Assembly: GCA_012295275.1 (NCBI GenBank)
Contig: CM022674.1
Span: forward strand, 17,360,001-17,424,000
Direction: 5' to 3'
DNA length: 64,000 nucleotides
From: Chrysomallon squamiferum
Taxonomy: Eukaryota; Animalia; Mollusca
Below, in pieces: positions 11,095 through 18,040 of this stretch. The position numbers and the translations under genes are program-made. Within the stretch, counting starts at the first letter, position 1; each line of letters opens with the position of its first letter. The notes below the pieces were generated by a model, which saw only the letters and a list, made by a program, of their open reading frames with translations, had not been told where the DNA came from and made no database searches.

Positions 11095-14000
11095 CTGAGA
11101 AACCAAACTTCTTTCTTCATCAGCTCTATGATGTCATCACTCACCTGGTTGTCATGGATATTAATTGTTAATCGTTTCAGTGCCACAGTCATGTCGTGCC
11201 ATTCTGCTACATGAGTGTCTCCAAAACTGCCACCTCCCAGTCTGAATCATGACATATGACATCATAAAGATATGTATGACATCATAAAGATATGTTTTTC
11301 ATTCTTAAGGAATGTACTAAGTAAAATACCTCACATGATTTTAAGTTGAAAATGGTGCAAAGGCATGATCAAAATTTGATTGAGAGAAAATCTTTACTAA
11401 TCTACAACTTTAATCAAAAAATGTTTCCTTAAATATCTAATTAATAAATATAAATAAAATATATATATGTATGTAAAAAAATAATTAAAAAGAAAAGAAA
11501 TAAAAATACGAATCGTATATCTGCATTTGTAAATTCACCATGGCAGTAGCTCACCTCTGTCTCATTTTAGTCGTGTCAATAGACATAACAGCATTCTCTA
11601 AAACAGGCAGCTGACTTTTCTTGGACACTTTCGATCCTGGTTCATAATCCCGGTACCTAACAGACATCATTGGGCGAATGGTGTGAAAATCCTCTCATTT
11701 TTCCAGTAACTGAAACAGCAAATATGTGACTTCTTAAACACTTTATATATATATATATATATATATATATATATAATGATGTCGCAACCATAGAAAAATA
11801 TTGGTGATCAGGTACTTTTAAATTGCATTCTATTTTTTAATCTACTTTATTATTAATTAAGATTGGAAGCTACAAAACCAAAATTAAATGTAAAACTCAG
11901 AACTATACGGATAATATACAGAGTAGTTCTTCTTATCACCTAAGGTACATTTGTTAAACTTTATTATTAATAAAGATTGGAAGCCAAAAATAATTACAAA
12001 ATGTAACTCAGAAGAATACGGACTCTATTTAGAACAGTTTTTTATGGCACTAAATGAATATTTTAAATGCAGAACTCCGAAAATCTCACCTGGAAGTTTG
12101 TAGTAGAATGGTAGGTGTGTTCTACTGAGGTAACACAAGAATCCGATAATTAACGCCATGAACAAGAAGCTAAGAATAGCACCAAACATAATAAACATAT
12201 CACTGCTCTTGCGGTTTTCTGACCTCTCTTCAAAACATTTAAATTATCAAGTACTTTTAATTAGATGGCATTCTCATTAGTGTATTCTGCAGTTACACTG
12301 ATGCTTGTCATCCAACAGTCTTTAAAATTTATTTAAATTATTAATTCATTACTAATTACATGGCGTTCTCATTAGTATATTTAAAATAATAATAATAATA
12401 ATAATAATAATTTGCTGCTACAGTCATGCTTGTTATCCGACAAACTCTAAATTTATATTATAAAACGTCTAACCTAAAATTTCAGAATATATTGTATGTT
12501 TTACATTTCTAACAACAGATATCTCTGTAACAATTGATATAAATTTCAACAACAAATTTTGTACAATCATATTTCTACTTACATTTTTTTTATTCTTCAC
12601 ATCACATAATTTACACATTTTAAAATACAAAGCTCAATATCTTCCATTATTTTCACTTTGAAGAAAGCAGAAAAATTCCTAAGAGACTGAAGATATGAAA
12701 CATTGTCTAGTTATTTGCTGATCAGTTATATAGTTTAAGTATGTGAAGTAAAATATAACAATGCATAAATCACTGATAACATTCAAGCATCGACTTATAT
12801 GTGGGTTCTTACATTTCTGTGAATCAAACAATGCTACAGAATTTTTTTTAATATATATATATATACACACGCACACACACACACACATATACATACATAC
12901 ATACATAGATATATATATATATATATGTGTTGATGTGTTTACAGACAGACATACAGATAAGATAGACATAGATATAGATTGTTTATATATATATATACAC
13001 ACACAAAAACATGTCTATATATAGATAGATAGAAAGAGATAGAAAAACATAAATATATGTATATATCTGTGTACTAAGAGACAAATAGCTGGGCAGATAT
13101 AGAGATAGACAGTCAGATAGACAGATAGCTAGATATAGATTTTATTTAATACAGACACACACATACATTTCTTTTTAAAATACATTAACACCAGGCAATT
13201 CATTTAATGTACAATTACCCCATTTGCACTTTAAGCTGAGGTAAAAGTATACACAATTATGTTGTTATGAGTGTGTAACTAATACACTAGATTAAGATAA
13301 CATTACTGACACTATTAAATTATTATCTGAACTTGTTATCTACATACTGAAAATAAACAATTACTCTGTATAGTGTGCACTGTAAGCTACATAATAAGGT
13401 GTAAAGAAATATAACTCTGCAGTGAGGTTTAATGTGAGTGTTGTATGATGTACCAAGTGTTGTAACATTTATTTGTATAAATAGTTGTGTTACTAGGTAA
13501 ATAGGTTAGTTATGGAAAGGACTTAAAATTCATCATTATTCGATTAGAACATCAGTAAAAATAAAACAATTAATTGCTTTATTGTTGTTCTTGTTTGGGT
13601 ATTTTTGTATTGTTTTTGTTTTTTTATTTATTGTTTTTTTAACTGTTTTTTATTTATTTTTTTATTATTATTCTTTTTATTTTATTAAAACTTTAAAAAT
13701 ATTCAAATTAATTGTCACACATTTATTGAAATTTTCTTCAAATTAGTGAAATGTGATTAGTGGCAGACTTGAAAAGAGCTCTGCAAATTACAAAACTACA
13801 ATAACAATAACAACAACAACACCAACAACAACAATAATCATTTTAGTTATAATGTGATGAGTTGTTCAGCTATTATTCAAGTGTTTCATTTAGAAAATAT
13901 TTTTCTACAAATGTACTACAAGATATTGAAAGTTATGTGTTCATGTCATGACTAGAAGATATCTTCTTTTTTTGTTTTCTTTTCTGATTTTTTTAATAGA

Positions 14001-17000: not shown

Positions 17001-18040
17001 ACAGCCACACAAAATACATTGAAGATATTTTCTCACAGTTACTTTATAAATAATCTTCAACACATTTTAAATTTGTTTATATATGTGTGTGTGTATATAT
17101 ATATATATATACTTTTCTTTTTCTTTTTTTTTTCTTTTTTTTAAATTTGAAATGTTTGAGTGGTTACCAAAAAAATAATACCTTGAGAGGTCATGGTAAA
17201 GAAAAAAATTGGTGAAGTGTGAAATATGAAACATAATAACCACAATAAACAACAACAAAAATTGAAATTGTAAATAGTAAAATTCTATTTTATTATCTGA
17301 TGTTAAAACCACAATATTCCTGAGAATGATAATGTTGATGATGAAGATAATAATTATGATGATTATCTTGATGACAATAATAATGCTGCCACTGCTGCTG
17401 ATGATGATGATTATAATAATAGATGATGGTGCAGATTATAATCCATGGTTGAATGTTACCAGTGATAGCAGTGTTGGTAGTCATAGTAATAATGTTCTTG
17501 AGGTTGTGGTTTAACAGAACATGGTAAAGTTAGTGTTTCTGTTAGTGGTTTTGACTGTAAGACCAGTTACAAAACAGTTTTGAAGAATAAGCATATTCAG
17601 TTTTAAATAATATGTCAGAATACAAATTAATAATTTCAGTCAAAATTCATTTTAATTTTGTTATGATTTATTTATTTAGCCATTTTTTTTTCTTTTCATA
17701 TTTTTTTTTTAAAATGCATGTATTTATTTATTCAATTTATTTTAAAGAAATAATCCTCTTTTTATTACTTACAAAAAGAACCCCAGTGTAGTTAAGTTAA
17801 TTTAGATGTACTTGCATAACAAAAATAAGAAGCAGCATTTATAAAAATTCGTATACATTACAAAAATCTGCATGCATTACCTCGGCAAGCCATCAGTGCG
17901 TTGAAAACTTTTCAAATCAATTATGTCTCTTGTGCTTATAACCAGTTTACATGAGCCTATTTGTATAAACGGGACAGCTACATAGTCATTAGAAACGGCA
18001 GATTCGGGAGAATTAATCAGCATAATGACGACAAAACTAA
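11095..18040 (-). pseudogene. MRH(M6PR-like) ectodomain + TM + TKL-like protein kinase gene, copy 1 (disrupted, truncated at both ends)
   Basis: Exons 18040(gap)-17881 (..VVIMLINSPESAVS..GSCKLVISTRDIIDLKSFQRTDGLPR), 17181-17168 (inferred microexon), 16837-16740 (KSYNYTFNPC..GCYLVA), 16207-~16077 (VCKFD..YFTLGLQNYAKF; TGA 16127-16129), 14788-14728 (AELHHLCCCPNGC), 12227-12090 (TM: MFIMFGAILSFLFMALIIGFLCYL), 11709-11555 (1-nt frameshift), 11241-11095 (LGGGSFGDTHVAEWHDMTVALKRL..MKKEVWFL). Confidence 0.75.

Follow-up and report, generated by a model that had tools for sequence, protein, structure and literature searches.

We analysed a 64,000-nucleotide stretch of the genome of the mollusc Chrysomallon squamiferum (GCA_012295275.1, contig CM022674.1, positions 17,360,001 to 17,424,000 of the forward strand; hereafter the window) and found on its minus strand two broken, duplicated copies of a receptor kinase gene. 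Copy 1 retains exons 1-4 and 6-9 (18040-11095), and copy 2 retains exons 1-6 and the exon carrying the DFG motif (54058-48491). The explanation that we favour, with rather better than even confidence, is that both derive from a mollusc-wide gene whose orthologs combine a predicted mannose-6-phosphate receptor homology (MRH) ectodomain, a transmembrane (TM) segment and a kinase of tyrosine kinase-like (TKL) grade, and which would act as a ligand-activated receptor for a ligand other than mannose-6-phosphate (M6P). The architecture is real, conserved and apparently undescribed, and it is met here in copies that are likely dead and of little weight themselves. Known MRH domains belong to sorting and quality-control proteins and not to signalling enzymes, and here one is predicted on a conserved mollusc kinase. 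If this is true, the family represents an orphan animal receptor kinase outside the receptor tyrosine kinase, TGF-beta receptor and receptor guanylyl cyclase classes.

A receptor kinase family in molluscs

The 48-residue translation of exon 9 was searched with phmmer against 1.84 billion (1.84e9) representative proteins. Twenty-seven matches were obtained at E<=0.001, of which three (P0002, P0022 and P0026) were unrelated and were dropped; the rest were full-length proteins or single-exon fragments, and the ends of these fragments coincided with the ends of exon 9 in the window. A word-indexed search with exon 9 returned no match. A profile built from ten exon 9 matches was then used to score 7995 candidates, of which 203 passed 1e-20. 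Among the best 120 of these 203, 52 family rows scored 458-953 bits, followed by rows at 330 and 291 bits; the row at 330 bits (P0073), a kinase-cyclase of different architecture, was not taken as family. A species name was attached to 38 of the 52 rows, and all of these species were molluscs, including gastropods, bivalves and cephalopods. The remaining 14 rows were open reading frames (ORFs) of 611-792 amino acids on Logan contigs of 1982-3862 nt. In the window, the distance from exon 1 to exon 9 is 7 kb, so contigs of this length are likely spliced transcripts in which the ectodomain is joined to the kinase.

The orthologs have the single-pass layout of ectodomain, TM segment and kinase in one ORF that the original prediction had proposed from the window alone, while neither window copy has it in full. 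One TM segment was found in all 41 full-length members and an N-terminal hydrophobic stretch in 36 of them, by hydropathy only, and the full-length AF2 model consisted of a helix (2-15), a beta domain, a second helix (217-245) and the kinase. The kinase is mostly single-copy, is kept across gastropods, bivalves and cephalopods, and is the best-conserved part of the protein. The family has been hidden because Pfam misses its ectodomain and because the names given by annotators (Ephrin receptor, FGFR, Ror, TMK2, PERK5 and drkC) are unrelated. When a profile of the ectodomain was run against longer proteins, 11 of 4578 candidates matched, namely ten known family kinases and P0141, which is a fragment of one more member; neither a different architecture nor a non-mollusc with a species name appeared among these candidates, which is weak evidence.

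In a quick kinase tree, all 13 named gastropods were grouped with a support of 95 and all three cephalopods with a support of 100. Copy 1 was sister to the Gigantopelta aegis ortholog XP_041377376 (support 98/95), to which it is 47% identical, and its branch was 2.4 times longer; this position makes a gastropod host likely. In the quick kinase tree, two divergent members, P0157 and P0074, fell outside the rest of the family, a placement that carries a long-branch warning. P0157, an 836-residue Logan record, is full-length and has a long low-complexity insert inside the MRH domain, a Gln after AIC and an exact HRDLRAAN loop.

Exon structure of the two copies

All of the exons named in the original prediction lie on the minus strand where it had placed them, with AG/GT ends. 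Searching the window by tblastn with 53 family proteins matched the ectodomain exons as well as the kinase exons, nine in total and in gene order; the number of proteins that matched is given once for each exon below, at the first copy listed. Nine further matches at E<0.05 lay outside the mapped exons, at coordinates of simple-repeat or low-complexity stretches. Exon 2, at 14 nt, is too short for tblastn; its phase fits, and it fills the family spacing between 'PR' and 'YxFNPC'. Pfam searches of ten single window exons gave no meaningful match. The exons of the two copies are as follows.

17881..18040, minus strand: copy 1 exon 1; end of a signal-like hydrophobic stretch and start of the MRH domain (Cys1, IDL..L); 5' end lost in an N gap; matched by 24/53
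17168..17181, minus strand: copy 1 exon 2; YYFF microexon of 14 nt (phase 2 to 1) with the same sequence in copy 2; keeps the frame
16740..16837, minus strand: copy 1 exon 3; YNYTFNPC...GC; 41/53
16077..16207, minus strand: copy 1 exon 4; VCK...YFTLG...LVFTG; in-frame TGA at 16129-16127 (CGA in copy 2); 13/53
14728..14788, minus strand: copy 1 exon 6; AELHHLCCCPNGC; closes the MRH domain; no exon 5 before it, as about 500 nt are lacking at about 14870; 45/53
12090..12227, minus strand: copy 1 exon 7; stalk, transmembrane helix and juxtamembrane YxxL motif (YYKL); 45/53
11555..11709, minus strand: copy 1 exon 8; 155 nt of juxtamembrane linker (RDYEP...LPVL), not in frame; 44/53
11095..11241, minus strand: copy 1 exon 9; kinase N-lobe (GGGSFG, VALK, alphaC Glu); last copy 1 kinase exon in the window; 52/53
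53891..54058, minus strand: copy 2 exon 1; has the ATG and a signal-like stretch; frame shifted by the loss of 8 nt near 53969
53185..53198, minus strand: copy 2 exon 2; microexon
52770..52867, minus strand: copy 2 exon 3
52036..52166, minus strand: copy 2 exon 4; open
50598..50703, minus strand: copy 2 exon 5; SVQQRKIIKLICD...DDGLF; expected acceptor reads AA, surviving AG at 50700-50699 out of phase; 38/53
50170..50230, minus strand: copy 2 exon 6; AELHHLCCCPNGC
48491..48560, minus strand: copy 2 DFG exon; Cys-rich activation segment (DFG...C....CC); 53/53

The exon with the HRD motif, which the original prediction had reported as not visible, was not seen here either: neither an HRD exon nor an APE exon was found on either strand by motif scan, tblastn or six-frame profile search.

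The ectodomain is predicted to have an MRH fold

An AF2 model of the Haliotis ectodomain, built with a 32-row alignment, was all-beta (pLDDT 91.2, pTM 0.87). Foldseek matched this model to CD-MPR (top), CI-MPR domains and Elapor1 at E values of 4e-6 to 5e-3, and the next match had an E value of 1.1; every row listed at E<=5e-3 was an MRH protein. VIA-align was run against 48,161 chains, and its best 21 rows were all MRH, with Z falling from 14.5 to 7.4, while the next, unrelated chain had a Z of 3.3; the best match (Z 14.5) had a root-mean-square deviation of 2.3 over 133 aligned residues. These matches, all of them to the Haliotis ortholog, bear out the MRH-like ectodomain of the original prediction, and the family ectodomain is predicted to form the MRH beta-barrel, a flattened nine-stranded barrel of about 150 residues. 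ESM features offered a lead in the same direction, with CIMR/ATG27 clusters at 0.92 and the family on 11% and 35% of members. Sequence searches were negative: none of the 32 ectodomains matched the MRH Pfam families PF02157, PF00878, PF09451 and PF07915 at E<=1, and the ectodomain profile had no match at E<=10 among PDB sequences.

Six cysteines (C6, C49, C67, C73, C128 and C162) are present in 32/32 ectodomains and in the window exons, and their positions in the sequence make them candidates for MRH-like disulfides. The number of cysteines is odd (nine) in 19/32 ectodomains and ten in one; within the terminal cluster, 6 rows have lost both the first and the last, and 6 different rows have lost only the middle one. 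The odd number suggests that one cysteine is free, possibly for an inter-chain bond.

Binding of M6P requires Q-R-E-Y, which in domain 9 corresponds to Q1283, R1325, E1345 and Y1351 (PMC10865371, in the part available). Four of the 15 domains of CI-MPR (3, 5, 9 and 15) are carbohydrate-recognition domains that bind sugar (PMC7481795, likewise in part). No row among the 32 family ectodomains has all four residues together. The positions were placed by motif anchors, which we take to mark the same sites in the family, and by spacing (46/25/6-7 vs 42/20/6). The Gln site is K in 30/32 and Q in 1/32; the Arg site is R in 10/32 and K in 15/32, thus basic in 25/32; the Glu site is D in 30/32 and E in 1/32, thus acidic in 31/32; and the Tyr site is Y in 0/32, with a Tyr one position along in 11/32. 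The window gene reads K, Q or R, D and V. The pocket residues are therefore conserved but changed, which suggests a different ligand, and the family probably does not bind M6P. The description of the receptor as glycan-sensing in the original prediction could not be upheld, as the Q-R-E-Y residues are not kept (n=32) and many MRH domains have no known sugar site.

The best-surviving alternative, which we regard as possible but improbable, is that the protein is a true lectin receptor kinase whose remodelled pocket binds high-mannose or phosphorylated glycans, from host lysosomal enzymes or from microbes, and signals. It would agree with the MRH fold and with CD-MPR as the top Foldseek match, with the partly conservative nature of the substitutions at the Arg and Glu sites, and with the neighbouring PAN/fibrinogen and PARP genes described below, as such genes are often immune genes. 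However, the Gln and Tyr counts given above and the absence of the full set from every row speak against it, and the top VIA-align rows were IGF2R domains 14 and 8 (by residue range), not the sugar-binding domains 3, 5, 9 and 15, although domains 3 and 5 lay within 1-1.5 Z.

The kinase domain and the cytoplasmic tail

The catalytic motifs of an active kinase are present in most orthologs, while the window copies lack the HRD and APE exons. The H-R-D, Arg, Cys and Asn of the catalytic loop are found in 52/52 rows, the DFG Asp in 53/53 and the alphaC Glu in 42/52. The beta3 Lys is found in 41/52, including the window gene; the other 11 rows have T or S, followed in such rows (e.g., P0019) by Arg.

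The best sequence and structure matches of the kinase were BRAF (157 bits), CTR1, RIPK2, ZAK and Roco4, with EGFR (150 bits), BTK and FGFR1 close behind. Trees were built from 49 and 35 of 86 domain rows, all of them kinases returned by the family profile search, a reference set without animal RAF, MLK, RIPK, LRRK and STKR and with bootstrap values that had not fully settled. In these trees, the family was supported at 100/100 and lay outside the tyrosine kinase (TK) clade (90/84), in a polytomy with TKL rows. In approximately unbiased (AU) tests on 23 rows, a sister relationship to Src-like kinases was rejected (p-AU 0.014), while sister to all TKs (p 0.42) and nested with five core TKs (0.11) were not. 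For the TKL-like kinase of the original prediction, a TKL-grade position outside the TK clade, with BRAF, CTR1, RIPK2 and ZAK as best matches, is favoured, but a position sister to all TKs is not rejected.

The catalytic loop reads HRD[LIV]RC[GAS]N, and RWTAPE is found in 40/53 rows. Since this loop, as HRDLRC[GAS]N, resembles the TK motif HRDLRAAN (PMC4342544; also PMC8662651; both in the part available), the kinase may have tyrosine or dual specificity. The activation segment has 39 residues in 37 of the 40 rows caught by the pattern (55 tried) and carries C-x4-C-x-C-x6-C, with Cys in 53/53, 52/53, 52/53 and 52/53 and a Ser in 51/53; no conserved Tyr was found in the activation loop among the 53 family rows. 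In P0041, the Cys sites are residue 442 in the catalytic loop and 471-485 in the activation segment, whose window counterpart is 48560-48491. The AF2 model has the segment ordered (block pLDDT 81-91), and its four cysteines may form a zinc or redox site.

A YxxPhi motif follows the TM segment in 50/51 rows and reads YSKL in 17; CI-MPR is internalised through the similar YSKV, residues 26-29 of its tail (PMC2172094, in the part available). This motif and the loss of the beta3 Lys in 11/52 would fit a protein that serves mainly in trafficking or as a scaffold and whose kinase is weak or dead: cargo would be captured by the MRH domain and sorted through YxxPhi, and the kinase domain would have a regulatory role. 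We consider this unlikely, because no row departs from HRD, Asn or the DFG Asp, the Lys is retained in the remaining rows, including the window gene, and the kinase is conserved better than any other part.

Lesions in the window copies

Both copies were described as damaged in the original prediction, and the locus has no uninterrupted full ORF, owing to a stop, frameshifts, a lost acceptor and missing exons. In copy 1, exon 4 contains a TGA, exon 5 is absent and exon 8 is out of frame, and no kinase exon was found beyond exon 9 in 11 kb of gap-free sequence. In copy 2, exon 1 has an 8-nt deletion, AA stands at the expected acceptor of exon 5, and no TM, N-lobe or HRD exon lies between exon 6 and the DFG exon; exons 7-9 have no second DNA counterpart elsewhere in the window. 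The junction 52036>50698, noted earlier as not phasing cleanly, has a real flaw: the acceptor position 50705-50704 reads AA instead of AG. In the family, the first full codon of exon 5 is Ser, and copy 2 reads S-V-Q-Q-R-K from 50702. The junction is unphased because copy 2 has lost the exon 5 acceptor. Two other repairs of this junction, an 11-nt microexon at 50802-50792 and an AAG acceptor at 50689, keep the frame and were rejected, as a lost acceptor agrees better with the family spacing than either of them. In exon 8 of copy 1, the frame would also be kept by an internal acceptor 16 nt into the exon, a weak site that was set aside but may still be used.

Synonymous changes between the copies had been taken as a sign of coding status. 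This argument fails, because among the 12 exon substitutions 3 are synonymous, 8 missense and 1 nonsense, against 21.5% synonymous expected under neutrality; the resulting pN/pS of 0.82 is near-neutral (P=0.50 under neutrality, P=0.022 against an omega of 0.2). The splice sites are mostly intact, so the loss of the gene is likely recent. The nearby PARP copy in the duplication likewise carries a stop. From the exon structure and the lesions, both window copies are likely pseudogenes.

The weakest alternative is that a single functional gene is seen twice, as haplotypes or through mis-joined contigs, with lesions due to assembly. It could draw on the 200-N gaps that join the three contigs, of which one falls in exon 1 of copy 1 and the other 900 nt below the copy 2 DFG exon, and on copies that together give exons 1-9 and the DFG exon and differ by only 2.7% in their exons. 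It is very unlikely, since the gap-free divergence of the aligned blocks is 3.8-8%, both copies carry more than one independent lesion, these are situated within contigs and are of other kinds than homopolymer slips (CGA/TGA, deletions of 8 nt and 500 nt), and the decarboxylase gene adjoins one copy only.

Proposed mechanism

For the receptor mechanism that we propose, the architecture and motifs of the orthologs are observed and the fold is predicted; the ligand, activation, trafficking and origin are inferred. First, the MRH pocket, remodelled with near-invariant Lys, Asp, His and Ser in place of Q-R-E-Y, would bind the ligand. A protein or peptide would be its ligand in about half of our expectation; a non-canonical glycan would come a clear second, and canonical M6P would have only a slight chance. 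Second, ligand binding would pair two chains, and the kinases would trans-phosphorylate each other, most likely on the near-invariant Ser of the activation loop, which has no conserved Tyr. Third, the juxtamembrane YxxPhi motif would likely mediate uptake through clathrin adaptors, as in M6P receptors, or might serve as a phospho-docking site, and the four near-invariant cysteines in the activation segment of fixed length could act as a zinc or redox switch. The gene itself would likely go back to a fusion, older than the divergence of the mollusc classes, in which a kinase was joined to the MRH-TM half of a gene resembling a sorting receptor. A bolder version, which we hold to be doubtful, is a lophotrochozoan receptor class in which an M6P-receptor-like sorting receptor was fused to a kinase that gained its tyrosine specificity independently of true TKs. 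A fold of lysosomal sorting would then serve as a signalling sensor for insulin-like peptides, as IGF2R domain 11 binds IGF2, or for modified glycans, and would be gated by the four-Cys zinc or redox switch.

Several points weigh against the explanation that two broken copies of a mollusc-wide, ligand-activated receptor kinase gene lie in the window. The fold is predicted for the Haliotis ortholog, to which the window pieces are 40% identical, and the register of the Q-R-E-Y sites comes from motif and spacing, not from a superposition of residues. The kinase may be a pseudokinase in some lineages, because the beta3 Lys is T or S in 11/52, and a four-letter motif such as YxxPhi is weak evidence of ancestry. 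In the quick tree, the bivalves are not united in a single group (5 changes). As to the decay, pN/pS is drawn from only 12 substitutions, and there may be an intact third copy elsewhere in the genome or beyond the gaps, or errors of assembly.

Comparison with known proteins

CD-MPR and CI-MPR/IGF2R (PDB 3k41, 6z31, 2v5o and 1q25) are closest to the family in the ectodomain: they match the predicted MRH barrel with Z 11.7-14.5 and share with it the six invariant cysteines, the type I topology and a YxxPhi in the tail. However, they are 12-20% identical to it, the family has not kept Q-R-E-Y and has an extra Cys cluster at the domain end, and Pfam Man-6-P_recep, CIMR and ATG27 match 0/32 family ectodomains. 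The family also carries a kinase domain, which to our knowledge the M6P receptors lack. ELAPOR1, GNPTG, OS-9/Yos9/XTP3-B and glucosidase II beta have the MRH fold at lower scores (Z 11.6 for Elapor1 and 7.4-8.5 for the others); the endoplasmic reticulum lectins are structurally more distant from the family than the M6P receptors, and we know of no kinase domain in any of them.

On the kinase side, BRAF/CRAF, CTR1, RIPK2, ZAK and Roco4 give the best sequence and Foldseek matches, but they are cytosolic and 21-30% identical to the family, in which the second residue following the catalytic Asp is Arg instead of Lys and the activation segment is Cys-rich and 39 residues long. The DRK proteins of Dictyostelium (drkA/rk1, drkC and drkD) are single-pass TKL receptor kinases, and 'drkC/drkD-like' is the automatic annotation name of many family members, a name based on kinase similarity only; no MRH ectodomain is known to us in DRKs. 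Receptor tyrosine kinases share with the family the type I topology, a loop close to HRDLRC[GAS]N (HRDLRAAN, exact in P0157), the RWTAPE motif and a score for EGFR close behind that of BRAF. In contrast, the family lies outside the TK clade in the trees, where this clade is supported at 90/84 without it, and has no conserved activation-loop Tyr.

The original prediction had held the architecture to be uncharacterised in animals, and we found no published description of a receptor kinase with an MRH ectodomain in the literature searched, most subscription papers and bioRxiv supplements being outside its coverage. In the parts available of the main texts of an oyster kinome study (PMC4883820) and a survey of transmembrane kinases (PMC10463195), as well as of PMC8662651 and PMC4342544, the word 'mannose' is absent. 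The ortholog K1S285 may correspond to row EKC41416.1 of the oyster kinome (TKL/Dicty4/DRK), although no link between the accessions was found.

The duplicated locus and neighbouring genes

Two gaps of 200 N divide the AT-rich DNA of the window into three contigs; the first gap (18041-18240) interrupts exon 1 of copy 1, and the second lies at 47390-47589. A direct duplication with an offset of 33-40 kb was found by alignment within the window, in the following blocks.

13400-14864 = 48767-50306
14875-18040 = 50808-54042
18243-23979 = 57905-64000
1200-4626 = 34500-38046

Upstream of the kinase in both duplicated units lies a gene with a PAN domain and a fibrinogen C-terminal domain, at 22647-20083 (minus strand) and 62446-about 59930 (minus strand), with Pfam matches to PAN_1 and Fibrinogen_C; its last exons are open in both copies. 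Another PAN_1 exon, not assigned to a gene, lies at 26927-26376 on the minus strand (Pfam E 3.5e-5). A PARP catalytic exon followed by a Ser/Thr-rich 48-nt repeat is also duplicated, at 34762-35619 and 1451-2293, both on the plus strand, and the stop in the copy at 1451 is an in-frame TAA at 1817-1819. A decayed stretch resembling the reverse transcriptase of a long terminal repeat retrotransposon was recognised by eye at about 44500-46045 on the plus strand, and one of its ORFs checked against Pfam had no match. A multi-exon, single-copy gene for a pyridoxal-dependent decarboxylase extends from 44222 to about 39060 on the minus strand, with a match to Pfam PF00282 in exon 1 and, by eye, a likeness to tyrosine/aromatic amino acid decarboxylases; a 435-nt piece at 39565-39999 recurs at 28988-29422.

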